Assembly: GCA_963676395.1 (NCBI GenBank)
Contig: OY781066.1
Coordinates: forward strand, 1,824,001-1,888,000
Direction: 5' to 3'
DNA: 64,000 bases
Source of the DNA: a bacterium
GTDB taxonomy: Bacteria; Fidelibacterota; Fidelibacteria; Fidelibacterales; Fidelibacteraceae
Shown here: piece by piece, positions 4,620 to 21,174 of the stretch
Layout of the letters: each line of letters opens with the position of its first letter
Numbering within the stretch: the first letter of the stretch is position 1
Position numbers and translations under genes: made by a program
Notes under the pieces: model-generated
Told to the model about the DNA's origin: nothing
Database searches by the model: none
What the model saw: only the letters and a program-made list of their open reading frames with translations

Positions 4620-4668
4620 TTGATAAAATACCATATTTTAAAATGACTTTCTATATCTAAAAATAGAG

Positions 4669-4684
4669 TGTGATGTAGGTCACA
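4669..4684. promoter_or_regulatory. CRP-family-like operator
   Basis: TGTGA-tgtagg-TCACA, a perfect match to the CRP consensus, upstream of tnpA. Confidence 0.5.
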
Positions 4685-4687
4685 CTT

Positions 4688-4796
4688 TTTTGTTCAACCC
4701 CTTGAAATACTCGGGGTTGGGTATATTTTTGTATCCTTTTTCCGGCCCTTCGTGCCGGGTTATTTAGAGTTTTACTCCTCGACAAGCTCGAAGTAA
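4688..4796 (+). repeat. REP/REPIN-like element family 1, copy B
   Basis: Direct repeat of 3889-3997. Confidence 0.85.
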
Positions 4797-4966
4797 GCAA
4801 GAATCATGCTAATTATTACCATTACGATACTTAGTGAGCAAAATATGAAAATATTGAAGGCAAATTCTTCTAATTTTATATAGCAAACATCACCTTTTAA
4901 CCATTAAATTATGGGGTTGATTAAATGATGTTGTTAAATGTGCATCTACCTTATAAAAAGGATCAT

Positions 4967-5503: not shown

Positions 5504-5512
5504 GAGAGAGCC

Positions 5513-6388
5513 ATGAAAGTACTTATTATCGGAGCATCGGGATTGGTTGGCAGTAATTGTTTGCACCGCATGCAGGAAGATCCCACCTTTGATGTGATCG
5601 GCACGCATTATTCTTTTGCTACCAATGATACGGAATATTTTGATGTTTTCGATCAAAGTAAAACAACATTTGATATCAGGGCGTTTTCTCCCGATGCGGT
5701 TGTTCATACCGGTGCTTTAACGCATGTAGATTACTGCGAAACGCACGAGGATGAAAGTTATCGGCATACCGTAGCATCTACCGAGGCTGCTATCGCTCTC
5801 GCGAATGATTTTGGTGCGCGCTTTGTGTACATTTCGTCTGATTATGTTTTCGATGGCGAAGACGGTCCTTACGATGAGAATGCAGAGACCCATCCTATAT
5901 CAGTCTATGGTCGTCACAAACTTCTTGCCGAAAAAATGGTGAGAGAACAATGCGAAAATTATTTGATCCTGCGTATTACCAATGTTTACGGTAGTGAAAT
6001 ACGTGGAAAGAATTTTGTAGCCTTTTTGGCAAAAACGGCAGAGGCCGAAGAAGAAAAAACATTGCGCTTACCGGTAGATCAATTTGCTACACCGATCAAT
6101 GCTGCAGATATTGCAAAGGTTTTGGTCGCTTTATTGAATGACAATAAGCAGGGTATTTATAATATTGCTTCGGACGAATATTTAAGTCGAGTTGAATTGG
6201 CCGAAAGAGTGCTGAAGCACTTTCCGGGGCATAAGGTCAAGGTCGAGGCCATAAGAACCGAGGATCTGGGGCAAGCAGCTCCAAGACCCCTATTCGGTGG
6301 TTTAAAAAATAATAAAATTAAGGGAGAGTATCCCAAGATGGATTTCTCAACCGTTGAAGAATACGTAGAGGAAGAATATGGAACTTAA
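5513..6388 (+). CDS. RmlD-like NAD(P)-dependent NDP-sugar 4-reductase (SDR)
   Basis: GASGLVG, T.VD.CE, ISSDYVFDG, YGRHK, APRP. Confidence 0.85.
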   Translation: MKVLIIGASGLVGSNCLHRMQEDPTFDVIGTHYSFATNDTEYFDVFDQSKTTFDIRAFSPDAVVHTGALTHVDYCETHEDESYRHTVASTEAAIALANDFGARFVYISSDYVFDGEDGPYDENAETHPISVYGRHKLLAEKMVREQCENYLILRITNVYGSEIRGKNFVAFLAKTAEAEEEKTLRLPVDQFATPINAADIAKVLVALLNDNKQGIYNIASDEYLSRVELAERVLKHFPGHKVKVEAIRTEDLGQAAPRPLFGGLKNNKIKGEYPKMDFSTVEEYVEEEYGT

Positions 6389-7691
6389 GAATATTAATAA
6401 GGATCTGGCGGCACAGTTAGAAACCATTGCTAAGCAACGTATAGAACGACCCATGGAACCGGGTGTAGATTATATTCCCGCATCTGGAAAGGTGTTGTTT
6501 GAACAGGATTTGCTCATGGGAGTTGATGCCGTGTTGGACGGTTGGCTGACCGGCGGTCGTTTTAATACAGAATTCGAATCCAGATTGGCTAAAATGATCG
6601 GTAATAAACGCGTATTGACCGTTAATTCCGGTTCATCGGCTAACTTGTTGGCATTTGCAACACTTACATCACCTAAGTTGGGTGATCGTGCACTCACAGA
6701 CGGTGATGAAGTCATTACCGTTGCTTCGGGTTTTCCCACTACGGTGAATCCTATTTTGCAGTTTAACTGTGTGCCTGTATTTGTGGATGTCACCGTGCCG
6801 GGTTACAATGCCAATGTAGACATTCTAGAAGAAGCGGTAGGGCCAAAAACCAAAGCTATTATGCTGGCGCATACCTTGGGTAATCCCTTTGACCTGGAAG
6901 CCGTGATGGCCGTTGCTAAGAAACATGACCTCTGGGTCATCGAAGACAACTGCGATGCCTTAGGCGCTGAATTTGCCGGTAAAAAGACAGGAACCTATGG
7001 TGATTTGGCAACCTGTTCATTTTATCCCGCTCACCATATCACCATGGGTGAGGGTGGAGCGGTGCTTATCAATAATCCCAAACTTATCCGCATAGCCGAA
7101 AGCATGCGCGACTGGGGGAGAGACTGCTGGTGCGAAACCGGTCACGACGATACCTGCAAAAATCGCTTTGGCGGACAGTGGGGCAATTTACCCTTTGGTT
7201 ATGACCATAAATATGTCTACTCCGAAAAGGGATTCAACTTTAAGATCACCGATATCCAGGCCGCCATTGGACTGAGCCAAATGGAACGCATGGAACCCTT
7301 TGCCGAAAAACGCAGACATAATCACGAATATTTAACGAACCTGGTAAAAAGCGAACTGGGTGATCTCATTATTGCCGATGAAGCCCATCCCAAGGCTACA
7401 CCTTCCTGGTTTGGCTGTACTTTTACATTAAATGACGGCTTCCCCAAGAATCGTCACGCACTCCTACAATACCTTGAAGACCATAAAGTCGGTTCAAGAT
7501 TATTATTTGCCGGTAACATCCTTAAACAACCCGGATACCTCGATATTCCACACAGAGTGGTAGGATCATTGGAAAATACTGATCGTGTGATGAATGATAC
7601 CTTTTGGGTAGGGAGTTGGCCTGGATTAGAAGAGAGGCATCTTGATTATATTGCGGAACAGATGGTTAATTTCGTTAAAGAAAATAAATAA
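6378..7691 (+). CDS. rfbH: CDP-4-keto-6-deoxy-D-glucose 3-dehydratase (E1/DdhC)
   Basis: NSGSSANL, EDNCDALG, SFYPAHHITMGEGG (His in place of the PLP Lys), RDWGRDCWC...DTC, GYDHKY. Confidence 0.93.
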   Translation: MELKNINKDLAAQLETIAKQRIERPMEPGVDYIPASGKVLFEQDLLMGVDAVLDGWLTGGRFNTEFESRLAKMIGNKRVLTVNSGSSANLLAFATLTSPKLGDRALTDGDEVITVASGFPTTVNPILQFNCVPVFVDVTVPGYNANVDILEEAVGPKTKAIMLAHTLGNPFDLEAVMAVAKKHDLWVIEDNCDALGAEFAGKKTGTYGDLATCSFYPAHHITMGEGGAVLINNPKLIRIAESMRDWGRDCWCETGHDDTCKNRFGGQWGNLPFGYDHKYVYSEKGFNFKITDIQAAIGLSQMERMEPFAEKRRHNHEYLTNLVKSELGDLIIADEAHPKATPSWFGCTFTLNDGFPKNRHALLQYLEDHKVGSRLLFAGNILKQPGYLDIPHRVVGSLENTDRVMNDTFWVGSWPGLEERHLDYIAEQMVNFVKENK

Positions 7692-7709
7692 TATTATTTA
7701 ACATAATGT

Positions 7710-7742
7710 GTAGAGACGCTGCATTGCAGCGTCTTTTTTTTT
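7710..7742 (+). terminator. Intrinsic terminator formed by a GTAG-type REP-like hairpin
   Basis: GTAG-AGACGCTGCA-T-TGCAGCGTCT followed by a T run, just after rfbH. Confidence 0.75.
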
Positions 7743-7764
7743 GTATGGGTGGGTTTTTGTGATG

Positions 7765-7841
7765 TATTAACGTTTCGCAAATATGCGAAGTGCTATAACA
7801 CCGCATTTGCCGTAGGGCGCAGTGCATATTTCTTGTTATTG
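7765..7841 (-). other. attC-like site 1 (77 bp, distal end of array)
   Basis: TATTAAC...AAATATGC...GCATATTT...GTTATTG. Confidence 0.7.
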
Positions 7842-7868
7842 GTAGAGATTATGGGGTTTTACTAATAA

Positions 7869-8303
7869 TTAAAAAATTATCCATCTATATCTACACTTCT
7901 GCCTTTCACCTTCAAGATATTGATCATTATCTTCAGGTAAATCAACGGTCGTCACATATTCTGCGCCAATCCATTCACAAGTTTTTCTGGATGCGTGATT
8001 ATCAGGATTACAAGTAATCCAAATAACATCAAGACCAAATTTTTTTATTTCATCCTTTAAAAGCAAACAAGCTTTACCAGCAAAATGATTGCCTCGAAAT
8101 TCTTCTATAATACTATAACCCAGATGCCCACCATAAAAAACAATAGAATCTGAATATCCAATTCGAAAATTAATATGTCCAATGACAATGTTCTGAGAAT
8201 TAAGAAAAATATTAAATTCCAAATTTCTTAACCAGTTTTTTTCAGGATTTGCAGGTGAATCTTTTTGCAAAACTAAGCTTATTTCATCATTCGCCAATTT
8301 CAT
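7869..8303 (-). CDS. Cassette gene: GNAT-family N-acetyltransferase
   Basis: GHLGYSIIEEFRGNHFA (AcCoA loop), ITCNPDNHASRKTCE. Start uncertain (8303 or 8324). Confidence 0.85.
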   Translation of the reverse strand: MKLANDEISLVLQKDSPANPEKNWLRNLEFNIFLNSQNIVIGHINFRIGYSDSIVFYGGHLGYSIIEEFRGNHFAGKACLLLKDEIKKFGLDVIWITCNPDNHASRKTCEWIGAEYVTTVDLPEDNDQYLEGERQKCRYRWIIF

Positions 8304-8346
8304 TTTTATAAATAGCCTCTCCAATAATATTATTCAGAATTTTTTC

Positions 8347-8478
8347 CGATAACGGTGGTGGTATGAGGTCGTGGCGGTCAGACGAGAGTCTGAGAGTCCG
8401 ACCGAAACTGAAGTTGGGACGAGATTCGACTTATCGAATCCGCACAAACCCAGTCATGACTTATACCACGTGTTATCG
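8347..8478 (-). other. attC-like site 2 (132 bp)
   Basis: CGATAAC..TGGTATGAGGTCGTGGC...GTCATGACTTATACCA..GTTATCG. Confidence 0.8.
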
Positions 8479-8486
8479 CCAGTAAT

Positions 8487-9761
8487 TTAATTTTTTGAAT
8501 ATTCATTAATTAATTTCTCAGCTTCATTTTTTTGATTTGGGTCTTCATATAATTCTTTCGCTTCTCTAAGTTTTTTTATTGCGTCTTGTTTCATCCCATT
8601 TATTGAATAAACCAATGCTAAACTTTTCTTATTTTGAGCACTTGATTTATAATTTTCAATCGTTTCCGCATATTTAACAGCGCGTGAGGAAGGTATTCTG
8701 TAAAAACTTGTAAATTCTATATAAAAATAATAATGCCAGAAATCATCCATGAAATTTTCCGGTTTCGAATACTCATCCATCCATTTGTTGAAAACTTCAA
8801 TCCCTTGTTTCATGTCTCCATGTCTTGCACAACGATGGGCTTTTAAATAAGGGGTCCAGTGGTCTGCATAGTTTCCCCCGTAATTGCTATATAGGGTAGT
8901 TAAACTGTCTGCTTTTTCAAAGTCTTTATTTTGCTTATACAAAAATTCTGCGTAATCTCTTACGTATCCCAAATGATGATTAAAATTCCCTTTTACAAGA
9001 GCATTTAAGTAATAGTTTACACTATCCATATTGTTGTTATCTCTATAGAAGAAATACAGTTCACTAAATCCCCATTCTTTAAATTGTTTGCTTATCCTTT
9101 CTTTCTTTACAAAGTTTATCATCTCAAGAGGTGATGGTTGTGGTTTTTTTCTTATCATAGAATATGCATGGTATAATTGGGCTTCTGTTTTCAGTTCCTC
9201 ATTATTACTGTGTCTTTCTGCATAGTCGGTAAATTCAATTGTCTTTAAATAAAGGTTTCGAGAAAGCATTTTATCCAGAGCAATCGTTCTAAATAATTCC
9301 AAACTGTCTGGATTTTGATAATATTTCTGTTCAAGAATGATTAAATTTTCTTTTCCTGAAATTATTTTTTTTATTGCATCAATAAACTCATTGGAGTTAT
9401 TTGCTTTTAATCCAACGATTCGGTCAATTTCATCACCATTGAGGTCAGTTATAATAAAGGTTGGATAGCCTGTAATTTTATATTTTTTTACAATTTCTTT
9501 ATTCTCTTCGATCTCTGCATTGATTTTTGTAGATAGAAAATTTCCTGAAATGTAATCTATGAATATACTATCAGTGACTATCTCTTTTTCAAACAATTTA
9601 CAAGGTCCACACCAATTTGTATAAAAATCGATGAATACCATTTTGTTTTCATTCTTGGCATTTTTAAAAACGCTTTTGTAGTCATTGTCAAAATAGGAAG
9701 TAGGCTCTTGTGTACAACCCCAAATTAGCGACAGAATTAGCAACGTGAATATGGTTTTCAT
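8487..9761 (-). CDS. Cassette gene: thioredoxin-domain lipoprotein with TPR-like C-terminus
   Basis: Lipobox IWGC, DFYTNWCGPCK, GYPTF (cis-Pro), helical repeats. Confidence 0.8.
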   Translation of the reverse strand: MKTIFTLLILSLIWGCTQEPTSYFDNDYKSVFKNAKNENKMVFIDFYTNWCGPCKLFEKEIVTDSIFIDYISGNFLSTKINAEIEENKEIVKKYKITGYPTFIITDLNGDEIDRIVGLKANNSNEFIDAIKKIISGKENLIILEQKYYQNPDSLELFRTIALDKMLSRNLYLKTIEFTDYAERHSNNEELKTEAQLYHAYSMIRKKPQPSPLEMINFVKKERISKQFKEWGFSELYFFYRDNNNMDSVNYYLNALVKGNFNHHLGYVRDYAEFLYKQNKDFEKADSLTTLYSNYGGNYADHWTPYLKAHRCARHGDMKQGIEVFNKWMDEYSKPENFMDDFWHYYFYIEFTSFYRIPSSRAVKYAETIENYKSSAQNKKSLALVYSINGMKQDAIKKLREAKELYEDPNQKNEAEKLINEYSKN

Positions 9762-9779
9762 AGTTGTCCTTATTATTGG

Positions 9780-9910
9780 CTACAACGGCAAATTGTATGA
9801 GTAGTGGCAGATTGCGTGGTAGTTTCCTGTCAAACCGGTACGCCGTTTGAGCGGGCTACAACCCTTGAATTTACTACTGACTCGGCTATTATTTTTATAC
9901 ATTGTTGGCG
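9780..9910 (-). other. attC-like site 3 (131 bp)
   Basis: CTACAAC...GTATGAGTAGTGGC...GCTATTATTTTTATAC..GTTGGCG; close relative of site 5. Confidence 0.85.
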
Positions 9911-9914
9911 GTAG

Positions 9915-11306
9915 TTATTCATATTCAATGTATTCTTTTGCATATTCAATCCAGTCCTCTACAAATTTATCCATATATATATCAGGTTGAATTCCAATAT
10001 TATCTAAAGGATATTCTGGCAAACGCATCATTCGAACCGTGGGCATATATAATTTATAATTTGAACAATCAAATTCAAATTCTCTAACTGAGACATAATC
10101 AATAGCTCCATAGGTTGGAGTACCTAATATTTTAACTTTTTTACTCTGCTTGGCAATTAAAACTAATTTTTCAGTCGAACTCGCACAACGTCCATCAACT
10201 AATATAGCAACTCTTTGTGGAAAACTGAATATTGAGTCTCTTTCTGTGAAACCAAAATTTGATTCTGCATTGTAGGGTATAAACTGTCCTATTTTGCCCT
10301 CCATACGTTTTAAATCACTTTTAACATCTTCAATTTCTTCGGAGTATTTTTCTTTATCTGCGGTATTGCACCAATTTTCAAGTTCGCTAATTAATGTCTG
10401 GGTAACAAGGTATTCTGCACCTAAATGTCTCACGGGATTTGAATAAATATATGGTAGTATTGGACGAAAACAATAATCTGTTCCACCACCATTTCCTCGA
10501 ACATCAATGATAAGATTTTTATGGGAAACAATTAGGGCATGATTTTTTTCGATAAGTTTAGTAACCTTTTTAACATTCGAATAATCAAAGCTTGAAAGTC
10601 TGAGCAATAAAGTTTGTTCGCTTAATTTGTCAAGATAAAACCCTAAAGCTCTTTGAACAATACTATCTGTATTGGTATTATAGCTTTCAGGAAAATCTTT
10701 GATAAAGGTCATTCCTAAATCTAAAAATTTAATCGCAACATTATCAACTATTTGAACAGAATCAAATGATAAAATATGATTCCGATTATAAATAACAGCT
10801 TGTCGGTTAGGATATATTTTGAACTTTACCTCGCCTTCGTTCCAATTGTCATATTCGCAATCGAATATAAGAGCATGGTAAATAGTGTCGATTTTTAGTA
10901 TTCCAACTTTATACTTACCAGATGTCCAAATTCCAGCTAACTTATCTTCGGATATTATTACTTGTTTCTTATAATCAGTAAATTTCATTTTTATCGTCTC
11001 AATAACCTGCAATTCATCATTGTCTACCTGATTTGATGAAATCTGCAAATGACCATCCTTAAAGTATTTAACGTATTCTTGTAGTATTTCAAAACAATCT
11101 CCTTCTTTGGTATTTTCAGCCCTTTTGATAAGATTGTTCTTGAAGTTTTTATACAACACCGAATCTTCTACTTTGTCTATAAATCCAGGATATTCATTTT
11201 CAACTTTGTTACTTAGATTGATAATTGACGTTTTGCACTCACAGTCGGATTGACCATAAATTTGGTGTGCGAAAAATAACAGTATTATAAATATTTTTAT
11301 TTTCAT
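9915..11306 (-). CDS. Cassette gene: secreted S41-family peptidase
   Basis: Signal peptide, FKDGHL, LIIDVRGNGGG, CASSTE, GTPTYG, GIQPD. Stop codon abuts attC-like site 3. Confidence 0.88.
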   Translation of the reverse strand: MKIKIFIILLFFAHQIYGQSDCECKTSIINLSNKVENEYPGFIDKVEDSVLYKNFKNNLIKRAENTKEGDCFEILQEYVKYFKDGHLQISSNQVDNDELQVIETIKMKFTDYKKQVIISEDKLAGIWTSGKYKVGILKIDTIYHALIFDCEYDNWNEGEVKFKIYPNRQAVIYNRNHILSFDSVQIVDNVAIKFLDLGMTFIKDFPESYNTNTDSIVQRALGFYLDKLSEQTLLLRLSSFDYSNVKKVTKLIEKNHALIVSHKNLIIDVRGNGGGTDYCFRPILPYIYSNPVRHLGAEYLVTQTLISELENWCNTADKEKYSEEIEDVKSDLKRMEGKIGQFIPYNAESNFGFTERDSIFSFPQRVAILVDGRCASSTEKLVLIAKQSKKVKILGTPTYGAIDYVSVREFEFDCSNYKLYMPTVRMMRLPEYPLDNIGIQPDIYMDKFVEDWIEYAKEYIEYE

Positions 11307-11352
11307 AAATCAACATGTTTTATTTGTGTAGCTCAGTTCTCTTTTTAATTAC

Positions 11353-11482
11353 TGCCAACGGTAAGTATATGAAAAGTTGCCGATTTCGATGCTCAGATTT
11401 TTCAAGTTACAATGAAGCTGAAATGAGCTACAAAGCTTAATTTTACTAATGTTTCGGCAATTATTTATATATATTGTTGGCG
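11353..11482 (-). other. attC-like site 4 (130 bp)
   Basis: TGCCAAC..GTATATGAAAAGTTGCCGA...TCGGCAATTATTTATATAT..GTTGGCG. Confidence 0.85.
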
Positions 11483-11505
11483 GTAGTTAATTTCATTTTC
11501 ATCAA

Positions 11506-12903
11506 TTAATTGTTTTGATTTATTAAAAAGCTGAGAGCAGTTTCAAGTGCTGTGTCTCTTCCTTTACGAAAATCCTCTATGGTAAGATGTGATTCTATAT
11601 CTGGCTTAATCCCGCTCCCTACAAACTCGCGACCATCTGGGTATGTATCTTTTTTTGAACATATTGACAATACACCACCATAAGGGAGATTCCATCTGAT
11701 TGGATTGCCAGTACTGCCAGCTGTCACTTCTCCAATTAGTGTAATGTGCTCTTGATTGTCGCAGAATACAAGAAAATCTTCGGCTGCAGAGTAGGTTTGA
11801 TGCCCGATAAGAATAACCGTTGGAATTACGAGACGTTCCCGATTGGAATCAAAAGTGAAATTAGTTTCTCCTCCTTTTTCGAAATACTTATGGTTTGCGA
11901 TTTCGTACTGTATTTTATTTTCAACATTTCTAATTGTGTCTTTCGGATTAATATTCTGTCCCCATGACATAAGAGCTGGATTATGTACTCGTGTGTACCA
12001 AGTCGAGCCAACAAGGTCATCTTCTGGGGTCAACCAACTTAGAATTTTCGCTGCATAACTGGAACTTCCACCATGATTGTTGCGAATATCTATTATCAAC
12101 CGTTTCGCACGTTTTTTAAGATCGGGGAAAATAGCCTCGAAGTCATCAACAGTCTGTTTATTGTTAAATGAATTGATAACAACATAGGCAATATCATTAC
12201 GATACCATTTAAGCTCTACAAATTTCCACTCTTTATCGGCTGGAACCAAAGGATCATTCTTAATTTCGGGCAGAACATCGTGAACCGCATGTGTTCTAAC
12301 CTCCTTTCCGTTGGGCGTAAGAAAAGCAATATCATAAGGGTCATATCTCAACGAAGTAAAAATTCTACTTATTGCCTCATCAAGCAAATGATGTTTAGTT
12401 GATGAACTTATGAAAGGCTCTACCTTTTCTTCAATATACTCAGCAGTCGGTATACCGTTTACTTCCACAATTTCACTACCGACAGGAATCCAATCGCTTT
12501 GTTTGCTGCTTATTTGGGATACTATAGCTCGTCCCTCAACAGGTTTAACAATAATCTGAAACTTGTCGAAAAAGGTTGTAACGGATGGATTGTATTTGTA
12601 ATAGACATATGAGTGCCCATCTTTTAACATTGCACAGTAACGGCTTAATATGCGATAGCATTCGTTATCACTTTTTGATTCCATAACTGGTTTTATCAAT
12701 GCAAGATATGTGCTATCCCATGCTTGCTCACCTATATTGTTAAAAAAAGCCTCATTATACTTAGCCTCTGACCATACTTTCGATAGTGCATACAATTTAT
12801 CTTCGGGTGTCATATAGGTGTTGATGCCATGAGTGATACGCTGTTGTGCGTTAGACGCCATTATTGACACGAAAATGAATACAGTAAATAGTAATATCTT
12901 CAT
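11506..12903 (-). CDS. Cassette gene: secreted S41-family peptidase with PDZ-like domain
   Basis: Signal peptide, LKDGHS, GSEIVEVNG, LIIDIRNNHGG, TYSAAEDF, GIKPD. Confidence 0.9.
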   Translation of the reverse strand: MKILLFTVFIFVSIMASNAQQRITHGINTYMTPEDKLYALSKVWSEAKYNEAFFNNIGEQAWDSTYLALIKPVMESKSDNECYRILSRYCAMLKDGHSYVYYKYNPSVTTFFDKFQIIVKPVEGRAIVSQISSKQSDWIPVGSEIVEVNGIPTAEYIEEKVEPFISSSTKHHLLDEAISRIFTSLRYDPYDIAFLTPNGKEVRTHAVHDVLPEIKNDPLVPADKEWKFVELKWYRNDIAYVVINSFNNKQTVDDFEAIFPDLKKRAKRLIIDIRNNHGGSSSYAAKILSWLTPEDDLVGSTWYTRVHNPALMSWGQNINPKDTIRNVENKIQYEIANHKYFEKGGETNFTFDSNRERLVIPTVILIGHQTYSAAEDFLVFCDNQEHITLIGEVTAGSTGNPIRWNLPYGGVLSICSKKDTYPDGREFVGSGIKPDIESHLTIEDFRKGRDTALETALSFLINQNN

Positions 12904-12973
12904 TATAATATATCCTATAAGTTACAAGTCTATTATTAATTGAAATATCATAAGTTTTGCGATTCTTAATTAC

Positions 12974-13103
12974 CGCCAACGACAAGTATATGCAAAGTAG
13001 GCAATTGCGGGCTTTAAACTTATCAAACCGTTACGATTTTGAAGCGGGCTACAACCCTTGAATTTACGACTGAATCGGCTATTATTTTTATACATTGTTA
13101 GGC
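12974..13103 (-). other. attC-like site 5 (130 bp)
   Basis: CGCCAAC...GTTAGGC; shares GCGGGCTACAACCCTTGAATTTAC...TCGGCTATTATTTTTATACATTGTT with site 3. Confidence 0.85.
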
Positions 13104-13114
13104 ACTGGCATTAA

Positions 13115-14428
13115 TTATAAATCCTTTGAATTCCATCCTAATTTATCAATTTGGTCAGAATAGTTCTCAAGTAAAAATTCCTGAACTTCATATTGATAAT
13201 CAAAATCAGATTGAGACTTTAACCATTCTAATGGCATTTCACCATTTAAAGCTTTAACAATTTCTTCCTCTAAATATTCAACAAGGTCATCAAGTGAATC
13301 GATACAAAAAGGCGTATCATGAGTTTCATCCGTCCCATCTAAAGTACCTTCTTCAAAGTTCCATTCTAAATTACTTATCGCTCCTTCTAATGCTTCTTGT
13401 GGAATATCTCTAATTGGGTCATAATAATCTTCTGCAATTTGATTAACAAATACTTCTAATTGTTCAAATAACTGTTCGTTTCTCAATTCCTCAATATCTA
13501 AAGCGTTCCTCAATTTAATTTTAAATGGTTCTGAGATGAAAAGAAATATAGTCCTGATAAAAACCGATGAGTTTTGTAATTGTTTTTCAATGTTTTGAAT
13601 AACAACATTCATTTCATTAGTTGATTGGTCATCATCTAGAATTACTATTACAGCTTTTGTATTCTTATGGTCTCCATAAATATTTAATAATGAAGGTAAT
13701 TGTCTAATATTATTTGCCCCATTTAAAGTTTCAATTCTATATGATAAAGAATATCTGTGTTTTATAGGCTCAATAAAGTTTTTAATTATTGGTATATCAG
13801 TTCTTCCTTCCACAAAAACTAATAAGTCATCAATCTTAACAGTCTTTTTAGATTCAATTCTAGAAAATTCATCGAACTTTAAAATTTCTGTTGGTTCTAA
13901 GTGTGATATTTTCTCTGCTTTTTCTTTTAAATCATATGGAGCTAACAAACTCCCAGTATCTCCAGCTTGTCGGAGCTTGAACTTTAATACATCTAAGAAC
14001 GATATTTCCCCGTTGAAAATTAGTTCAATATCATTTCTGTCGAATAACAATATGTTTAGTGATTTTCCAAATTTCAAGGCATCTTCAACATCTTCACTAT
14101 ATCCATTAACTGAAAGAAAAACACCACTGGTTGTATGAAATTTTCCGTCGAGTTTACCTTTAAATGAATAAATACTAGATGCTGGAAGTGTTTTTGCTAC
14201 CCATTTAGCTTCCAGTAAAAATGTTTGTCCACTCCAAAAAAACGACCCATCTATTTGTTCCCCTTCAGGTTTGTAGCCAGACCTTGGTTCCAAATTTTCA
14301 TTTTGTAATACTGAGTAAATAATTTTCTCAAATTCAAATCCTCTTTCTTGTGGGGTGTATCTCTTGCCCTCCAAAAGTTCTTTGAATTTATTTTTAATCT
14401 TAGTTTTGTTTAAAATCTCTTTTGACAT
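13115..14428 (-). CDS. Cassette gene: Mrr-like PD-(D/E)XK nuclease fused to a TOPRIM-like domain
   Basis: RGFEFE, EQIDG, LLEAKW, GVFLSVNGYS, then VFVEGRTD...ILDDD and an acidic tail. Confidence 0.7.
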   Translation of the reverse strand: MSKEILNKTKIKNKFKELLEGKRYTPQERGFEFEKIIYSVLQNENLEPRSGYKPEGEQIDGSFFWSGQTFLLEAKWVAKTLPASSIYSFKGKLDGKFHTTSGVFLSVNGYSEDVEDALKFGKSLNILLFDRNDIELIFNGEISFLDVLKFKLRQAGDTGSLLAPYDLKEKAEKISHLEPTEILKFDEFSRIESKKTVKIDDLLVFVEGRTDIPIIKNFIEPIKHRYSLSYRIETLNGANNIRQLPSLLNIYGDHKNTKAVIVILDDDQSTNEMNVVIQNIEKQLQNSSVFIRTIFLFISEPFKIKLRNALDIEELRNEQLFEQLEVFVNQIAEDYYDPIRDIPQEALEGAISNLEWNFEEGTLDGTDETHDTPFCIDSLDDLVEYLEEEIVKALNGEMPLEWLKSQSDFDYQYEVQEFLLENYSDQIDKLGWNSKDL

Positions 14429-14470
14429 TCAATATCTACTTAAGTCGTTTCAAGGTTGCTTCTATTTTTT

Positions 14471-14654
14471 GCTTGTGAAACGTAAGGGATTTGAAAAACT
14501 TTCCTATCAAGTTTGCACGTAGCCAAATTTACGTTTTGACACAAATTTAAAACTTTTAACAAACCCGTCAAATCGCAGATTTGGCGGACTTGATTAAATG
14601 TACAAATGTTCCGTAAACCACTGTCGCCCTTATGTTTTATATACTTTGTTAGCA
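14471..14654 (-). other. attC-like site 6, one arm deleted
   Basis: Right arm CCCTTATGTTTTATATACTTTGTTAGCA is intact. Left arm reads only GCTTGTG-AAACGTAAGGG and lacks the expected CCTAAC..GTATATA part. Confidence 0.7.
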
Positions 14655-14664
14655 AGCGTATTTC

Positions 14665-15492
14665 CTATTTTTGATAATATTTATAATCCTTATTCACTAA
14701 TATATAATCACTTATCGGATTGTTTCTCAAATTGCCATTGTTTCTCATAAATCGTGCAAAATTCATAATTGAATGATATTCGATTTCTCGCAATTCCGAA
14801 TGATATTTTGGATGAACTATTTCGTATCTAAATTTATTCCACTTTGGAATTTCATGTCGTCCAATTTTCACTCTATCTCCGAGGCGTTTTGCACTTCCGA
14901 TATATAATTCTCTATTCTTTTCGTCAATCAAGTAGTAAATAACAAACTCTCTATCTTCATGCTTAATAAGGTCAACCGAATCAATCCATGTTGTTGATTT
15001 TGTAATCATTTGATTGTTGTCAACCTTGCTTATCCAACCAAAAACATTTTTATCCACCAAGTCTCTGAAAATATTGTCGTAAGGTGTTTCAATTTTTATA
15101 AAAGTTTCTAATTCAATCAATGTGCCTGAAATTGGTTTAAAAATCAATACTTCTTGATTTCCCCCAAGTAAATTAGTCCTAAAATATTCTCCTTTCAATT
15201 TACTGTCATAGTTTTGACTCTCGATGGCAAAATAAGTTTGTATAAATTCCTTTTTCAGTTCGTTTAGTAAATCAATATTATTATCCCAACGAATCTGATA
15301 TATTGATTTTCCACTTTGATTTTTTCCATGAATCATTCGGGCAGAGTAAGTCATTTTCTTAAAAATCACATCAATCTCAATAGATGAACCTTGCTCAATT
15401 GTTCCACTCTGAAGAAACATTGAAATGTACTCTTTCGGAATCGCAATCCCGTATTTAAAAACTGATTTATCTATCTTTTTGTAATATGCCAT
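14665..15492 (-). CDS. Cassette gene: unknown N-terminal domain plus C-terminal GIY-YIG nuclease
   Basis: FVIYYL...ELYIGSAKRLGDRV...REIE...LVN matches the GIY-YIG/Arg/Glu/Asn pattern. Confidence 0.7.
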   Translation of the reverse strand: MAYYKKIDKSVFKYGIAIPKEYISMFLQSGTIEQGSSIEIDVIFKKMTYSARMIHGKNQSGKSIYQIRWDNNIDLLNELKKEFIQTYFAIESQNYDSKLKGEYFRTNLLGGNQEVLIFKPISGTLIELETFIKIETPYDNIFRDLVDKNVFGWISKVDNNQMITKSTTWIDSVDLIKHEDREFVIYYLIDEKNRELYIGSAKRLGDRVKIGRHEIPKWNKFRYEIVHPKYHSELREIEYHSIMNFARFMRNNGNLRNNPISDYILVNKDYKYYQK

Positions 15493-15522
15493 TTTATTAT
15501 CTGCTCTGTCTTTTTATATGCT

Positions 15523-15643
15523 TGCTAACGGTTGGTACATGTTGTCGGGGTGGATTTCGGAACGAAGGACACGGAACTGCGAAACGAGAATCCGCAGTTG
15601 GCGTACCACCGAACCCCGCCCTGCAATATGTACTGTGTTAGCC
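15523..15643 (-). other. attC-like site 7 (121 bp)
   Basis: TGCTAAC..GTACATGTTGTCGGGGTGG...CCCCGCCCTGCAATATGTAC..GTTAGCC. Confidence 0.85.
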
Positions 15644-15651
15644 ATAGTTTT

Positions 15652-16740
15652 TTATTTTATATTTTCTGCTGATTCCCAAATTGCAATGAAATTTTCGAGC
15701 ATTGTTTTTCCTTGGCTTGTATAAATGTTTGTTATTGTAAATGATGATTTTGTGAGTCTAACAGTTCTTCCTTGACAATCAAATCGAATTGGCGTAAATA
15801 ACACGGCATCATCAATAATAATTATTTCAAAAGTTCTTTGTGTCATATACTTTTTTAGGTGCAAGTTCGGCTCGATACTATTTCTCTCTAGAGTTGTAAT
15901 TGCATTATTCAAACAATTATTTAATTGATTGATAAAATCTTCATCTTGGTGAGCACAATCCAGGATAAACTTTGGCGAGTCAGGATTTAGAAACAAACAT
16001 TTAAAATCAAATCCATTACTAATTTTCTCTTTTAAGGATTCATAAAACCACCAGTGGTCTTTGTCAAAAACTTTTCTATTTTTTCTTCCAAAGATGTATA
16101 ATCTTTCTGAGGCATTATTGAATACTGCTTCATAAACTGCATGACTTTCAAAACCTTCTTTAAAATTTACTGTTCGACCTATCTCTGGTTTAGGTAATCC
16201 TCCTTTTTGTAATATGTCTATGAACTTTGGAAGAACTTTTGAAGTATTTGTTAGTCGTATACATTTAAAATTTTTATCAAGTGTGGTTTTGAAATTATCC
16301 CATTTTTCTTCAAACTCTTCAATTAATAATTCCTTCTCTTTTTTATATTCGTCAAGTAACTCATTTAGCGAAAGGATTAAATTAAGCATATCCTCCTTCT
16401 CAAGTGAAGTTGCTTGGAATTGAGCAAGTGGTCCTGTTAAGTCTCTTTTTTCCATGCCTATTAAGATTGGACATACTCGTGATTCTTCCATTACCTTTGA
16501 AATAGCCCCCGATTCAAATAGTAACCATTGTGAATCTTGATTTTCTGGAGTTATACAGATTACTCCAATCATATCATTTGATAATCTATTACCAATTTCT
16601 TGGCTCCAGCGTTGCCCTTTTTGTATCTCAATTGATGACATCCATGGTTTTAGTGGATGCAAGAGTCTTTTTGTAAAATCGTAGAATGATTCTGCAAATA
16701 TTTTACTCCTTTCTCCTGACCAGCTAATGAATATTTCCAT
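15652..16740 (-). CDS. First array gene: TIR-domain protein with C-terminal PLD-like-fold (DUF5919-like) domain
   Basis: IFISWSG, W.S..I.KG.RW, WLLFESGA (catalytic Glu). C-terminus has A.ERLYIFG, FKCLFLNPDS, IIIIDD. Confidence 0.75.
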   Translation of the reverse strand: MEIFISWSGERSKIFAESFYDFTKRLLHPLKPWMSSIEIQKGQRWSQEIGNRLSNDMIGVICITPENQDSQWLLFESGAISKVMEESRVCPILIGMEKRDLTGPLAQFQATSLEKEDMLNLILSLNELLDEYKKEKELLIEEFEEKWDNFKTTLDKNFKCIRLTNTSKVLPKFIDILQKGGLPKPEIGRTVNFKEGFESHAVYEAVFNNASERLYIFGRKNRKVFDKDHWWFYESLKEKISNGFDFKCLFLNPDSPKFILDCAHQDEDFINQLNNCLNNAITTLERNSIEPNLHLKKYMTQRTFEIIIIDDAVLFTPIRFDCQGRTVRLTKSSFTITNIYTSQGKTMLENFIAIWESAENIK

Positions 16741-16852
16741 ATGTTTAGTTTTTTCGCTTTTATGTTTTAAATGTTTTTCCCGGAAATTTGGTAATCGTTT
16801 TACTTGCTATCTAAATGAATATTGTCACAATCATATTTATCTAAGTTGCATA

Positions 16853-16881
16853 AAATTAAGGTAGGATAATCGCAATTCCAA
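16853..16881 (-). promoter_or_regulatory. Candidate array promoter (Pc-like)
   Basis: Minus strand TTGGAA-N17-TAATTT about 110 bp upstream of the TIR gene; resembles putative host promoters at gpmI, radA and thrS. Confidence 0.45.
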
Positions 16882-17242
16882 ATGATATTCTTTTTCAAGC
16901 GTAAGACGTGAGACGCCTGCCGGTAGTAGCCTTCTTGACCACCGTAGCCTAGGCGGGGGCGGGTTAGTAGTGAACCGTTAAAAAGAAGTTGATTTCAGAA
17001 TCGCCCGTATTATTTGAGTAAATTTTTAATGATATACAAAACATGGATCGTGATGGAGGCGAAAAAGGCGCTACCATCGTCACGATTACAACGGACAGGT
17101 TTATAGATAATGGCTCTTTTCAATAGCCGCGGGTAATGTCATCCTGAGCGAATAACCCAAGGCCAAAAGATCTCAAAATCTCTCGAAAAGGTTTTTTTGA
17201 CTGAATGCCTACGACTAAATTGGGTAGATTAATTCAGTATAA

Positions 17243-17283
17243 TAAAAGAACCCCATAATGGATGCATTTCCACTATGGGGCTC
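17243..17283 (-). terminator. Intrinsic terminator of the DUF898 gene
   Basis: CCCCATAATGGA/TCCACTATGGGG hairpin preceded by an A run on the + strand. Confidence 0.6.
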
Positions 17284-17301
17284 ATTTTATTTTAAGCCAG
17301 C

Positions 17302-18228
17302 TTACTTCGACTCTAAATATGTTTTACTTAATATTCTTTTTCCAATTTTGCAAGCAGCCCAGGGATAATAGATTCCCAGGGTAATGATTGATAAAAGGGA
17401 TTGTCCCCAAATAAAAAGAAAATCTTTCGATTGCTCTATATCATATCCAAGTCTCATTTTTGCTTCATTATTTTCTACGCATGTTTTTTGAGTAAAATAT
17501 TTATATAACCTAAGTATGGCTAGAGGGTAATATATTCCAAGTGTAATGACTGTGAGTAGTAATTCAATGGCAATTTTTCCACAAGATTCCCAAAATTTTG
17601 TATCCCAAGAAATTTGGTATTCTTTGTATTTTATATCTACCATCCATTTATATGCAAAGTATGCATAAGGTATTGCAATGATGAATATGATGATTTGAAA
17701 TATAAAATTTAATCCGACACTTCCGCTGTTGTTGATCAAAAACTGACTCATAACTATCGTTAATACAACAATAGGAATAATAATAGCTAATAACATGATC
17801 AGGAATAACTTCCCACCTTTACCTTGAAACTGAAGATTGTTTGATTTGTAAGAAGTATTATCTACAAAAAATTTATATATATTTCTAACATACCACGCTC
17901 CGTAAATTCCCAACGTAATAATAGTAAGAAAAAGCCCTAATAATACAGTGCCCATGTATTTCCCGAATTTCCCATTGAATTCTACACTTTCATTATTATA
18001 GCTTATGTTCTCAATGCTTAATTTTGTGATGTAAAAAGTGATAAAAAATGTAATGATCATTACTAAAAATAACAAGGGTAACAATATCAGCGAAGAAGCA
18101 TCATCAGCCTGAATATTTTGCATTTTAAGAATGATAATTGAATAAGGAATAATAAATAATACTAAAAAAGCTATCCATATTGGGAAAAGCTTTTTGCCGG
18201 TTAATTTGAAATCAAAATAATTTTTCAT
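17302..18228 (-). CDS. DUF898/YjgN-family membrane protein
   Basis: Three repeats of LTIITLGIY.PW-like motif with F.F.GK.G segments. Confidence 0.8.
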   Translation of the reverse strand: MKNYFDFKLTGKKLFPIWIAFLVLFIIPYSIIILKMQNIQADDASSLILLPLLFLVMIITFFITFYITKLSIENISYNNESVEFNGKFGKYMGTVLLGLFLTIITLGIYGAWYVRNIYKFFVDNTSYKSNNLQFQGKGGKLFLIMLLAIIIPIVVLTIVMSQFLINNSGSVGLNFIFQIIIFIIAIPYAYFAYKWMVDIKYKEYQISWDTKFWESCGKIAIELLLTVITLGIYYPLAILRLYKYFTQKTCVENNEAKMRLGYDIEQSKDFLFIWGQSLLSIITLGIYYPWAACKIGKRILSKTYLESK

Positions 18229-18415
18229 AATTCTCCTATTAGATTTTGCTGTTTAATTTCATGTGTATTCATGATGTCATCTCATTTATTTTAGAAATCG
18301 ATTAAGTCGTATTTATTTAATTGTGTAAAAATAAGATAAGTCAGGTAAAATTCCAAAGGCTTTTCTTTTTTGTGAGACATGGAATGTTGCAATTTGTCAC
18401 TATCGCTTTTCAAGC

Positions 18416-20983
18416 TTAGCGCTTATTAGCCCCCAAATATTTATTGATCAGTCCGAACAAATTATCTTTTTCAATTGGTTTAGAGATAAAATCATTACAA
18501 CCGGCGTTGAGACATTTTTCCCGGTCACCCATTTGAGCAAATGCGGTTTGTGCGATGATCAGGATATCTTTGTTAAATTCACGTATTTTTTGTGTGGCGG
18601 TAAGACCATTCATTTTGGGTAGTTTGATATCCATTAGAACCAGATCAAGATCGGGATTGTTTTTACATGTTTCAACGGCTTCGAGACCATTATTTGCAAT
18701 AAAAATTTCCTTAGCAAAATCTTCGAGAAGTATATTTAAATAGGTTGCTGCAAATTCTTCGTCTTCTACGATAAGAATTTTGAGTGGCTTATTGGTGGTA
18801 AAATCTTCATGCTTTTTATTGTCGGTGTGTACGATTGTTTCAACTGCGGGATTGTAAGGTAGTGTAAAATAGAAAATCGACCCGGATTTTTCAATGCTTT
18901 CCACCCAAATATTACCTCCAAGCATTTCTACATATGCTTTTGTAATGGATAAACCCAATCCGGAACCTTCGTACACATTTTTATCTTCTATGTCTGCTTG
19001 TTCAAAACGATTGAATATAGCGTTTTGTCGTTTTACCGGAATACCAATCCCGGAATCTTTGACATAGAATTTTAGTTGATCGTTAGCTTCTTTGGTGCAG
19101 CCAAATTCTATGCTTCCTTCGTGAGTATATTTTAGTGCATTTTTTATAAGGTTTGTCAGGATTGAATTTAATTTATCTTTATCTGTTTTGATGTTTATTT
19201 TATGATCTGTTGATTGTTTGCTTATTGATAACCTAAGATTATTTTCCTGGGCTTCAGGTTGGAAGAAATCTAATAATTCTTGCGTTAATAGACCTAAATC
19301 AACATCTGATAATGAAATTTTTTCCTGGCCGGATTCAATTTTTGATATATCTATAATATTCTGGAGTGTATCTAGCATTCGCTGTCCACTTTGTTCAATG
19401 ATATTAATATATCGTTTTTCTTCTTCTCCGGTTAAATTGGGTTTCTTTAATAGACCGGTAAAGCCCAGTATGCCATTCATAGGCGTTCTGATTTCGTGAC
19501 TCATGTTAGCCAGAAAAGCAGATTTTAAATGATCACTTTCTTCTGCTTTTTCTTTGGCGGATATCAGTTCTTTTTCTGCGATTATTTTTTCGCTTATATC
19601 GATCCATTGACAAACAATATTTGTTATTTCATTTTTTTCATTTAAAAGAGGGAATAATGTTACATTAATCCATAGATCATGAGCCCTAGACAGATCAATG
19701 TGTTTTATTTTGTTTGCTTCCCAAAGTAGTGTAAAGTCAACTGTTTTTTGTTCGTTAAATACTGACTTGATCTTTAGTGATAATTCATCATTTTGTAAGT
19801 TTTCATCTTTTAGTACACTGTATTTTCCTACTAAATCTTCATCAGTTAGATTCAGTATCGCTTTTAGTGCTTTGTTTGCATCTTGGAGTATACCATTTTT
19901 ATCGGCTATCCACATTGGGAAAGGGTTGTTCTCTACAAGGGCTCTGAATTTTTGTTCACTTTTCTTTAGCAGCCTTTCTGCTTTTTTTCTTTGGGCTTCA
20001 CCTTTCATGATGTTGCTTACTTTTGCTAAAGAAAAAACATAAATGATCACTGCTATAAATAATATGAAAAGGAATACAGTTGATCGTAATCTGAACTTAG
20101 AGAGAGAACTGTATATTTCGGCCTCATCGAAAGAAATTAAAATAGTCCAGTATGTAGATCCCAGTGGGATGCGTTGATAAACGACAAATTTTTTCTCTGC
20201 TTTTTTAGTATTTAATCCACTAAAATCTTGATGTGTGCTAAATCCTGTTCCGTTTTCACTTCCCTTGATTTTGTCGATTAATTCAAGCGTATTAACATCA
20301 CTCATTGTATTTTGAATGAATGATGCACCTTCGTGTCCCGGTATGCGACAATATATTTGAAACAAATTTTCAGAGATTAACCATGAATGCCCATTTTTTT
20401 CATCACCAATATTATCAAGAAATTTATTTCCAATTTTATTAAGGGGGATGAGTAAGGCAAGGCTACCATTAAATTCCTTATCTTTAAATACCGGTACATG
20501 TATAGCAATGGTATTGTAGCCTTGAACACTCATAAAAATATCACTGATCACCGGTTTGTGTGTGGCAAATATTTTGATCATATGGTCTTGCCATGAAATA
20601 TCCTGCCCTATGACTGAATCCATGTAAGGATAAGTATAAACGATCCTGCCGGAGGCGTTTACTCTTGTAATTGCATCAAGGGTGTTGGAGTGCATCTTAT
20701 AGTAATCTATCAGGCATTTTTTATATCCGGTGCTAAGGTCAATGACCGGGGCATATTTAGCTATGAATGTTAGGTCAGATTGATAGGTTGCCAAAAGCGT
20801 AGAGATACCCTGAGCAGCTGTTTTTGCCAATAACAACTGTTCCTTAACGAAATCATCTTTGGTTTTATTTTTAATGTCAGTGTATATGAGATTGAAAAAA
20901 AAGTAGAACAATACAAAAAATACAATGATAATCAGATATCTCTTGGAAGTCCATTCTATAAACTTTCTTTGTTTAGGAACCAT
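18416..20983 (-). CDS. Hybrid sensor histidine kinase (Cache-PAS-HisKA-HATPase-REC)
   Basis: Two TM segments, FLANMSHEIRTPMNGI, NLIKNALKYT, DSGIG, GSGLGL, LVLMDIKLP. Confidence 0.93.
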   Translation of the reverse strand: MVPKQRKFIEWTSKRYLIIIVFFVLFYFFFNLIYTDIKNKTKDDFVKEQLLLAKTAAQGISTLLATYQSDLTFIAKYAPVIDLSTGYKKCLIDYYKMHSNTLDAITRVNASGRIVYTYPYMDSVIGQDISWQDHMIKIFATHKPVISDIFMSVQGYNTIAIHVPVFKDKEFNGSLALLIPLNKIGNKFLDNIGDEKNGHSWLISENLFQIYCRIPGHEGASFIQNTMSDVNTLELIDKIKGSENGTGFSTHQDFSGLNTKKAEKKFVVYQRIPLGSTYWTILISFDEAEIYSSLSKFRLRSTVFLFILFIAVIIYVFSLAKVSNIMKGEAQRKKAERLLKKSEQKFRALVENNPFPMWIADKNGILQDANKALKAILNLTDEDLVGKYSVLKDENLQNDELSLKIKSVFNEQKTVDFTLLWEANKIKHIDLSRAHDLWINVTLFPLLNEKNEITNIVCQWIDISEKIIAEKELISAKEKAEESDHLKSAFLANMSHEIRTPMNGILGFTGLLKKPNLTGEEEKRYINIIEQSGQRMLDTLQNIIDISKIESGQEKISLSDVDLGLLTQELLDFFQPEAQENNLRLSISKQSTDHKINIKTDKDKLNSILTNLIKNALKYTHEGSIEFGCTKEANDQLKFYVKDSGIGIPVKRQNAIFNRFEQADIEDKNVYEGSGLGLSITKAYVEMLGGNIWVESIEKSGSIFYFTLPYNPAVETIVHTDNKKHEDFTTNKPLKILIVEDEEFAATYLNILLEDFAKEIFIANNGLEAVETCKNNPDLDLVLMDIKLPKMNGLTATQKIREFNKDILIIAQTAFAQMGDREKCLNAGCNDFISKPIEKDNLFGLINKYLGANKR

Positions 20984-21174
20984 ATATTTGCCGTTCGTTG
21001 TTTAAAATTATCCTTGCAGGTAGCTACCTTATAATGATATATATATTATTGAAAATCTTATTTAACTGCAAGAAAACAAAAAAGTAATCAAAAATGATAA
21101 GGTTGAAAATTACAATACTTTCTTTAGATGAATTTTGTCTGCGAATGAAATATCGTTCTGATATAGTGTATGAT

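Follow-up and report, generated by a model that had tools for sequence, protein, structure and literature searches.

What brought together the seven minus-strand genes at positions 7763-16740 of the 64,000-nt stretch analyzed here (the window, to which coordinates refer unless marked as genome positions), each of them followed by one hairpin site that opens with AAC and closes with GTT? The genome consists of one 2.34 Mb contig, and no recombinase is encoded within the 64-kb window. The first-pass annotation had described the row as an array of integron-type cassettes shuffled by a recombinase located outside the window, and such a candidate was found elsewhere in the genome, i.e., a 279-amino acid (aa) XerA-like tyrosine recombinase. 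It is, in our judgement, likely that the array is a recombinase-less satellite of a non-IntI integron-like system, that is, a functional equivalent of a CALIN (a group of clustered attC sites with no integron integrase). It is not a degraded classical integron, because the genome has no IntI and the enzyme associated with these sites is XerA-like and devoid of the IntI insertion.

The cassettes and their hairpin sites

The sites were searched for with two covariance models, one built from five sites of the window (the five-site model) and one from 56 sites of many taxa (the 56-site model), the latter providing the scores given below. The array reads as follows.

7763..7845, plus strand folds: attC0, short degenerate distal site; AAC 7769-7771, GTT 7835-7837 (20.5 bits, E=0.013, filters off)
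7869..8324, minus strand: cassette gene, GNAT acetyltransferase, 151 aa (PF13302/PF00583)
8343..8482, plus strand: attC1; AAC 8351-8353, GTT 8472-8474 (80.8 bits)
8487..9761, minus strand: cassette gene, thioredoxin-like protein, 424 aa (PF00085)
9776..9914, plus strand: attC2; AAC 9784-9786, GTT 9904-9906 (94.5 bits)
9915..11306, minus strand: cassette gene, S41 peptidase, 463 aa (PF03572)
11349..11486, plus strand: attC3; AAC 11357-11359, GTT 11476-11478 (122 bits)
11506..12903, minus strand: cassette gene, S41 peptidase, 465 aa (Pfam)
12970..13107, plus strand: attC4; AAC 12978-12980, GTT 13097-13099 (108.8 bits)
13115..14428, minus strand: cassette gene, 437-aa protein of no family (PADLOC matches weak, E ~3e-4)
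14456..14658, plus strand: attC5, long degenerate site; AAC probably 14479-14481, GTT 14648-14650 (16.1 bits, E=0.14)
14665..15492, minus strand: cassette gene, 275-aa protein with a weak GIY-YIG match (PF01541, E=0.006, below cut-off)
15519..15647, plus strand: attC6; AAC 15527-15529, GTT 15637-15639 (59.7 bits)
15652..16740, minus strand: first (proximal) cassette gene, TIR-domain protein, 362 aa (PF13676; PADLOC TIR-TM 163.8 bits)

The palindromes annotated earlier behind seven minus-strand open reading frames (ORFs) are confirmed, all seven being real members of the site family recognized by the 56-site model. The GTT of the site lies 8-31 nt from the stop codon in all seven genes. Five sites are strong and intact and two (7763-7845 and 14456-14658) are degenerate, the 5' arm of attC5 being without an L box. 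The genes had been called unrelated and AT-rich; the array block has indeed 30-37% GC versus 42-45% in the 5-8 kb flank, but the two S41 peptidases share 22% identity over 145 aa. The 437-aa protein found no match in Pfam and NCBIfam, and the TIR-domain protein is, by its domain content, a candidate defence gene. From attC0 to attC6, the AAC-to-GTT spans are 69, 124, 123, 122, 122, 172, and 113 nt (77-180 nt with 4-nt flanks). The sites were initially considered long, but at 121-132 nt they fall within the 57-142 nt range given for attC in Bouvier 2009 (PMC2727003).

The five-site model is narrow (attC0 and attC5 were missed at E<0.1), and outside the window it revealed nine more copies in the genome. 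The check with a custom covariance model, which had been advised in the first-pass annotation, yielded 13 whole-genome matches of the 56-site model at E<1e-10, the next match having E=0.35, and these were confined to four places: the window (five), 715-724 kb (five), 1104-1107 kb (two), and 1135 kb (one). With the filters off, attC0 and attC5 followed as the next-best matches of the window, both position and strand being as predicted. Throughout the genome the sites lie 1-31 nt after a stop codon, always on the opposite strand. Two window sites have close counterparts in the array at 715-724 kb (the main array): attC2 shows 92.8% identity over 97 nt to genome 715441-715537, and attC4 87.7% over 130 nt to genome 720430-720558. 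Rfam itself holds no attC family, and at its gathering threshold the one match in the window was a tRNA.

As was proposed for this array earlier, the strand opposite the genes folds best: calculated with DNA parameters, the plus strand is the more stable one in six of the seven window sites (e.g., -28.8 kcal/mol versus -24.1 on the minus strand for attC1, and -27.0 versus -21.6 for attC6), attC0 being the exception. Pairing of the L helix reaches 93.8% in 18 sites taken from this genome and related ones, where six of its nine pairs are compensatory and a G-U pair is present in 17 sites. In other taxa (41 sites, 15 loci) the helix is 98.6% paired with all nine pairs compensatory, the G-U pair occurs at the same position in 33/40, and AAC/GTT are kept in 39-40/40. 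The observed covariation was reached by none of 500 shuffles, and slid controls pair at 23-55%. Where one strand has the conserved G-T wobble, its complement has a C-A mismatch, and therefore the strand opposite the genes is the one built to fold. The outer R-box positions are paired in about half of the sites, which is expected if those letters belong to the neighbouring cassette.

The folded site comprises a short R box (YAAC/GTTR), an internal loop of approximately 6 nt x 3 nt, an L stem of at least 9 bp bearing the conserved G-T wobble, and a variable loop. The internal loop is asymmetric, with the extra bases on the AAC arm, and the L-box sequence itself is conserved (GTRTAWG / TTATAYAC). 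When 55 sites were folded with the R triplet and L core enforced, the first loop was 2-3 bases longer on the 5' (R'-L') arm in 54 of them, and a conserved 2-4 nt bulge adjoins the R box on the stop-distal arm; no consistent single-base bulge was found in the first 9 or more bp of the L stem of these sites. The extra bases had originally been assigned to the stop-codon arm, which holds for secondary bulges located further in, in attC2, attC4, and attC6 only, but not for the conserved bulge, which occupies the other arm. On the coding strand, the cores are GTTAATA, GTTATCG, GTTGTAG, GTTGGCA, GTTGGCG, GTTTCAC, and GTTAGCA, the common element being only GTTR, so the reported deviation from GTTRRRY stands.

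A separate similarity was noticed for the stretch 8454-8530, i.e., the stop-proximal arm of attC1 with the last codons of the thioredoxin-like gene, which is 86% identical to genome 725265-725344 in the main array. No site was called by the models in that part of the main array, which is probably a partial site.

The recombinase and the crossover point

The 279-aa recombinase is encoded at genome 712955-713794, on the same chromosome as the window array and 1.1 million bases away from it, and the largest array of the genome (715-724 kb) lies directly downstream of its gene. It scores 237.9 on NF040815 (XerA-type, cut-off 220) and 209.8 on TIGR02249 (IntI, cut-off 265), with model positions 182-238 of the latter unmatched. 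Likewise, the structure of Vibrio IntI4 (2a3v) aligns in two pieces, residues 181-247 being skipped and 24 residues of the query (180-203) standing in their place; the best solved relatives are archaeal XerA proteins. The ORF is intact, and the C-terminal catalytic motifs align with those of XerA and IntI4. A genome search for an IntI-type recombinase with the specific insertion had been suggested, but none was detected, and this insertion-less enzyme was found instead: TIGR02249 matched six stretches in three genes (XerD, a Xer-like gene at 1394 kb, and the 279-aa recombinase), none above the 265-bit cut-off. XerD, located 1.9 kb upstream of the 279-aa gene, scores 362 bits (above its cut-off) and 155.6 on the IntI model; its N-terminal domain is PF02899, and that of the 279-aa enzyme is PF13495.

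The main locus (genome 712955-728175) consists of the recombinase gene, an attI-like junction, and cassettes with five strong sites and one weak site. Its first cassette carries an Abi_alpha gene and a 205-aa ORF, and the further cargo includes a SIR2-like 930-aa protein, Septu PtuA/PtuB, an HD-CE/HATPase 838-aa protein, a GNAT protein, and a polysaccharide deacetylase. The sites separate the genes and lie on the opposite strand, and several of the later genes have no detectable site. Two other satellites without a recombinase were also identified, at genome 1104787-1107424 (two cassettes) and 1135636-1135755 (one cassette); in both, the site begins 1-4 nt after the stop codon of a plus-strand ORF.

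Cassette ends are informative of how such arrays are built. Over the 10 nt beyond AAC/GTT, the flank pairs of the same cassette match at 9, 8, 10, 10, 4, and 10 positions (mean 8.5), compared with means of 5.4 for the two ends of the same site and 4.6 for the other 36 pairs, in agreement with the early observation that the ends of a cassette match each other and those of several sites do not. The GTT flank of attC5 and the AAC flank of attC6, for instance, match at 10/10 positions. Within the group of related sites attC2-attC4, the AAC end is foreign in attC2 and the GTT end in attC4; each model of the crossover end therefore meets one exception, and the window alone cannot assign that end.

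The main locus and its relatives point to one of the two ends. The sequence ...CATACACTAAC|GTTGTGCCCA, located 72 nt after the stop codon of the recombinase gene, forms an attI-like ...AAC|GTT junction, and the stop-proximal end of the site of the first cassette, TGGGCACAAC, is the exact complement of the sequence at this junction. In the 15 relatives with a recombinase orthologue, six contigs stop 72-109 nt past the stop codon, five of the six with GTT, or GTT and a single further letter, as their end; contigs of relatives that continue past the attI-like junction differ in sequence from there on. In flavobacterial (Bacteroidota) loci, similarly, the sequence 3' of the recombinase gene is conserved up to GTT and divergent after it. 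The attI junction and the breakpoints of the relatives therefore place the crossover at G|TT of the stop-distal core, which on the folded strand is AA^C at its 5' end. This fits the cassette insertion at G^TT assumed in the first-pass annotation, and the crossover of classical attC sites is placed at the same point in Bouvier 2009 (PMC2727003).

Each cassette is one gene with a hairpin site of approximately 130 nt, folding on the strand opposite the gene. In the mechanism proposed here, cassettes would leave the array as circles and enter it through a strand exchange at AA^C on the folded strand, equivalent to G^TT of the coding strand; such an exchange would explain why the first letters of a cassette are complementary to the stop-proximal end of its own site. 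The 279-aa recombinase (genome 712955-713794) would act on the window array in trans, and it is probably this Xer-like enzyme that moves the window cassettes. The site family with its structure and covariation, the logic of the cassette ends, the attI junction, the link to the recombinase family in several phyla, and the differences between genomes at the window locus are all observed, and what is inferred is that single strands fold in the cell, that this enzyme is the catalyst and works in trans, and that the system is active today.

Distribution and locus variation

Orthologues of the 279-aa enzyme (E<1e-60) occur in 15 of 61 sampled genomes of the phylum, and Xer-like matches at 30-38% identity are present in nearly all 61. 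Named matches at approximately 70% identity belong to several phyla, and a scan of species genomes revealed 68 homologue loci, mostly of Bacteroidota, with 40-59% identity. Around these loci the five-site model gave 35 matches in 268.6 kb downstream of the recombinase gene (34 on the opposite strand) versus four in 496.6 kb upstream, the latter all in one locus with a divergent layout; 19 of the 68 loci end less than 300 nt from the gene. With the 56-site model, 79 sites were found in an Algibacter genome, 75 in a Polaribacter genome, and 38 in a Bacteroidales metagenome-assembled genome (MAG) whose recombinases are 48% identical to the 279-aa enzyme. Among the matches listed, most Algibacter and Polaribacter sites lie in arrays of approximately 80 kb beside the recombinase, with additional scattered satellites.

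Within the phylum, 32 of the 61 genomes carry sites, i.e., 12 of the 15 with a recombinase orthologue and 20 of the 46 without; with kin being non-independent and MAGs incomplete, this co-occurrence is suggestive only. The 20/46 genomes in which sites were found and the orthologue was not imply that enzyme-less satellite arrays are common.

Three further observations concern the recombinase family. In one Bacteroidales MAG locus (L098), a recombinase of 40% identity is preceded upstream by five sites (2878-8597) and the cassettes are divergent from it, which is the layout of classical integrons. In three relatives (G039, G049, and G059), recombinases 43-46% identical to the 279-aa enzyme are followed directly by a conserved ORF beginning with MAYLILDIETVP, with no attI-like junction; this is a different subfamily or arrangement. 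Two genomes with no full orthologue contain fragments of 60-66 aa that are 77-80% identical to the C-terminus of the recombinase and, on this similarity, look like its remnants (G026, C1:2363337-2363516; G053, C7:77287-77475 and 84510-84701).

The surroundings of the array comprise the following features.

6378..7691, plus strand: conserved flank, DegT/RfbH-type aminotransferase (PF01041, 294 bits)
Approximately 7712-7745: terminator hairpin 3' of the DegT/RfbH-type gene
16831..16893, minus strand: promoter-like element directed into the array (63-nt match to two other copies)
17302-18228, minus strand: rest of the inserted block, DUF898 protein
18416-20983, minus strand: rest of the inserted block, hybrid histidine kinase
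21175-22119, minus strand: rest of the inserted block, methyltransferase
22202..23104, minus strand: conserved flank, Gfo/Idh/MocA-type dehydrogenase

The DegT gene is present in all 22 genomes of the genus, the source genome included. Comparison of the interval in relatives, which had been recommended for this locus, revealed that in nine of 15 congeners DegT is followed directly by a homologue of 22202-23104, with no array, and therefore the 7.7-22.2 kb stretch is an insertion. Another congener, G019, carries different cassettes at the same locus, namely a 6.7-kb stretch in which the genes are unrelated and two sites immediately follow stop codons; of the others, one has a 2.9-kb gap and four are covered by too short a sequence for a verdict. 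A search of 21 congeners for DUF898 found it in none, and no sites were detected in the DUF898, histidine kinase, and methyltransferase block (17302..22119).

Single cassettes of the window recur elsewhere. The stretches 8455-9788, 11492-12882, and 15647-16459 were found at 94-97% identity on short contigs in marine metagenomes of two other studies: the thioredoxin-like cassette (8455-9788) lies with 42 differences on a 1470-nt contig of marine metagenome X1, and 11492-12882 recurs at approximately 94% identity on short contigs of X1, X2, and X4, the uncovered parts of the stretch in X1, X2, and X4 being no evidence of absence. In public runs, the contigs of the best-matching run break at every site, and the summed depth of site words reaches 113,205 (attC6, run X5), compared with approximately 15 for cassette bodies.

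Joints in these data, such as 8474 to 15527 and 15653 back to 9784, were considered as evidence of circles and rejected, their sides being only 20-49 nt long, the contigs far deeper than the source genome, and the junctions misfitting. In runs X5, X1, and X4, short contig pieces, likewise far deeper than the source genome, also join 8472-8475 to 15526-15532, placing an attC1-like GTT end onto an attC6-like AAC start (GTT|AAC); these joints may have arisen in assembly or may represent empty junctions of other organisms.

As for the neighbouring sequences, the promoter-like element at 16831-16893 shows 78% identity over 63 nt to genome 712865-712927 and window 18306-18368. The AT-rich element runs from TTTGGAATT to TTAAATAAATAYGA, is approximately 78% alike across its three copies (window 16831-16893 and 18306-18368; genome 712865-712928), and precedes, respectively, the first cassette, the DUF898 gene, and the gene of the recombinase; from its sequence and position, it may represent a shared promoter type. 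The region 16900-17100, between the array and the terminator of DUF898, is GC-rich and contains several short hairpins, no ORF of at least 60 aa, and no Rfam match. Beyond the inserted block, a second low-GC block (32001-39000, 26-31% GC), in which GC skew and AT skew are both strongly positive, may likewise have been acquired as an island.

Alternative explanations and known systems

The array could be an ordinary CALIN, left by a classical integron whose IntI was lost or resides on another replicon. Its AAC/GTT cores, the G after AAC, the folding of the opposite strand, the 77-180 nt length, and the logic of the cassette ends are all like those of classical attC. However, this genome is a complete single contig with no TIGR02249 match at the cut-off, in many taxa the same site family lies downstream of an insertion-less recombinase, it is the R'-L' and not the R''-L'' arm that bears the conserved bulge, and the cores follow only GTTR, which makes this origin very unlikely. 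We regard it as quite unlikely, too, that the housekeeping XerC/XerD recombine the sites, as in XerCD-dependent elements or pdif modules, with the 279-aa enzyme as a bystander. XerD is encoded only 1.9 kb upstream of the 279-aa gene, and sites persist in genomes in which no 279-aa orthologue was found; yet it is the 3' end of the 279-aa family, not of XerD, that abuts the conserved-to-variable junction in relatives and in Bacteroidota, the 279-aa gene is patchy in the manner of an accessory gene (15/61 genomes) while Xer-like matches occur nearly everywhere, and the sites do not resemble the 28-bp dif core. Least credible of all are ordinary intergenic repeats (REP-like sequences or terminators) with no role in gene movement, carried by an acquired island. 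The whole 7.7-22.2 kb block is indeed inserted relative to nine of 15 congeners and includes genes without sites, but ordinary repeats would hardly be restricted to four places of the genome, always 1-31 nt past a stop codon and on the opposite strand, nor have flanks matching across cassettes and not within sites, nor start as arrays at a fixed junction beside one recombinase family, and single cassettes would not be expected to recur elsewhere.

A fossil array deserves more weight: assembled by the mechanism proposed above, it would now be static, its hairpins being kept chiefly for termination or insulation. In favour of this, two sites out of seven are degenerate, no proximal attI was found, no junction reads were seen, and the sites stand just after stop codons, where a hairpin could terminate transcription. 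On the other hand, five sites have the full consensus and score 60-122 bits, equal to the sites beside the recombinase, the recombinase ORF is intact with catalytic motifs aligned with those of XerA and IntI4, and G019 has different cassettes at the same locus. On balance, we find this possible but rather doubtful.

The reading of the array as a satellite served in trans by the 279-aa enzyme has itself to be held against several points that speak against it. At its proximal end (16741-17300), no attI, GTT junction, or recombinase remnant was found, only the promoter-like 63-nt match, and with two degenerate sites of seven the array may be decaying. The alignments used for the pair counts were fitted to the model, which biases them towards the structure. 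Among the 45 loci with at least 1 kb downstream of the recombinase gene, 13 gave a match of the five-site model and 32 did not, although a model so narrow is weak evidence either way; moreover, sites persist without the enzyme, as in the 20/46 relatives mentioned above. Circle-junction reads, which the first-pass annotation proposed to look for, were sought in public runs, and no read fits either the predicted circle (15528|9786) or the predicted deletion (8352|15529). Finally, a specific IntI domain is tied to the single-strand pathway in Escudero 2016, and the 279-aa enzyme, being without that domain, may follow a chemistry different from the one outlined here; the insertion is, according to Smyshlyaev 2021, not fully conserved in an integron-like subgroup.

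With these reservations, we lean slightly towards a broader proposition, namely that IntI is not the only enzyme to capture cassettes through hairpins and that short Xer/XerA-like recombinases devoid of the I2 insertion form a second lineage, which runs true integron-type platforms with a double-stranded attI, sites folded from single strands, arrays of up to approximately 80 kb, and satellites served in trans. This lineage would span Marinimicrobia, Bacteroidota, and other phyla, would read the hairpin via the bulge of the cleaved arm and not via extrahelical bases of the opposite one, and would include the acquired interbacterial defence clusters of the recombinase-associated type (rAID-1) as one gut-specific branch and the window array as one of its satellites lacking a recombinase. 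Integron surveys are defined by IntI and one attC model, and the IntegronFinder 2.0 survey reports almost nothing in Bacteroidetes, where the 56-site model nevertheless detects arrays of approximately 80 kb, in line with the first-pass guess that standard models may miss such sites; if the proposition is true, a large share of cassette capture in marine and gut bacteria of the Fibrobacteres-Chlorobi-Bacteroidetes (FCB) group has been left uncounted. The IntI insertion is held to permit folded-strand recombination, and an insertion-less enzyme acting on hairpins would make this question directly testable. The cargo of the window and the main locus also includes defence candidates (TIR, SIR2, Septu PtuA/PtuB, and Abi_alpha), and therefore such arrays are a place to look for new defence genes.

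Compared with classical integrons and CALINs, the system shares one-gene cassettes, an imperfect palindrome with AAC...GTT cores (in all seven window sites), the G after AAC, the opposite-strand (bottom-strand) fold, the G|TT crossover at the stop-distal core, complementary cassette ends, a double-stranded attI beside the recombinase, recombinase-less satellites, and defence cargo. It differs in its recombinase, which has no IntI-specific insertion and remains under the IntI cut-off (no IntI being found in the genome), and in attI, which lies downstream of a co-directional recombinase gene. In contrast to classical attC, the sites have a conserved L-box sequence and cores that obey only GTTR and not RYYYAAC / GTTRRRY, and instead of single extrahelical bases on the R''-L'' arm, the cleaved R'-L' arm carries a bulge of 2-4 nt. 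The G after AAC of classical attC and the extrahelical bases, defined on the R''-L'' arm beside the stop codon, are described in Bouvier 2009 (PMC2727003). A sedentary chromosomal counterpart among classical integrons is the Vibrio superintegron, with Vibrio cholerae repeat (VCR) sites of approximately 125 nt.

XerCD-dependent modules (pdif modules and integrative mobile elements exploiting Xer, IMEX) employ the host XerC/XerD and 28-bp dif-like cores, and CTX-type elements use a folded single strand. They are similar to the window array in that genes are moved by Xer-family recombinases with no dedicated large integrase, but the latter has hairpin sites of approximately 130 nt, a dedicated third recombinase, and attI. 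In the literature covered, which excluded subscription journals, no account of a hairpin or crossover was found for a non-IntI array.

Together with classical integrons and CALINs, the closest described systems are the rAID-1 arrays of Bacteroidales, with a XerD-like recombinase 5' of a co-directional low-GC array and intergenic motifs 'reminiscent of integrons' (Ross et al. 2019, bioRxiv 10.1101/471110). Their first criterion, in the same text, asks that the XerD-like recombinase on the 5' side share at least 44% identity with BF9343_RS08045. The accessible parts of that preprint and of a 2025 preprint (PMC12247911) mention cargo genes for immunity to type VI secretion (T6SS), state that close homologues of the recombinase occur in Bacteroidales only, and report rAID-like scaffolds without a contiguous recombinase; they give no hairpin structure or crossover point, and in the latter the way in which rAID arrays arise is called an open question. 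If the broader proposition holds, rAID-1 arrays of gut Bacteroidales would gain a concrete mechanism. The window array is unlike rAID-1 in its Marinimicrobia-like host (the nearest named matches of GcvPA, at 76-83% identity, belong to Candidatus Marinimicrobia), in having no adjacent recombinase, and in its cargo (peptidases, a thioredoxin-like protein, GNAT, and TIR), with no family of interbacterial-toxin immunity among the seven cassette proteins in Pfam, NCBIfam, and PADLOC scans. It is like rAID-1 in its seven co-directional genes of 30-37% GC (at least two genes and at most 41% GC in the rAID-1 definition) and in its conserved intergenic motifs. The 279-aa enzyme is 45-48% identical to its Bacteroidales homologues, and the Bacteroidales MAG with 48%-identical recombinases carries its 38 sites of the family found in the window.

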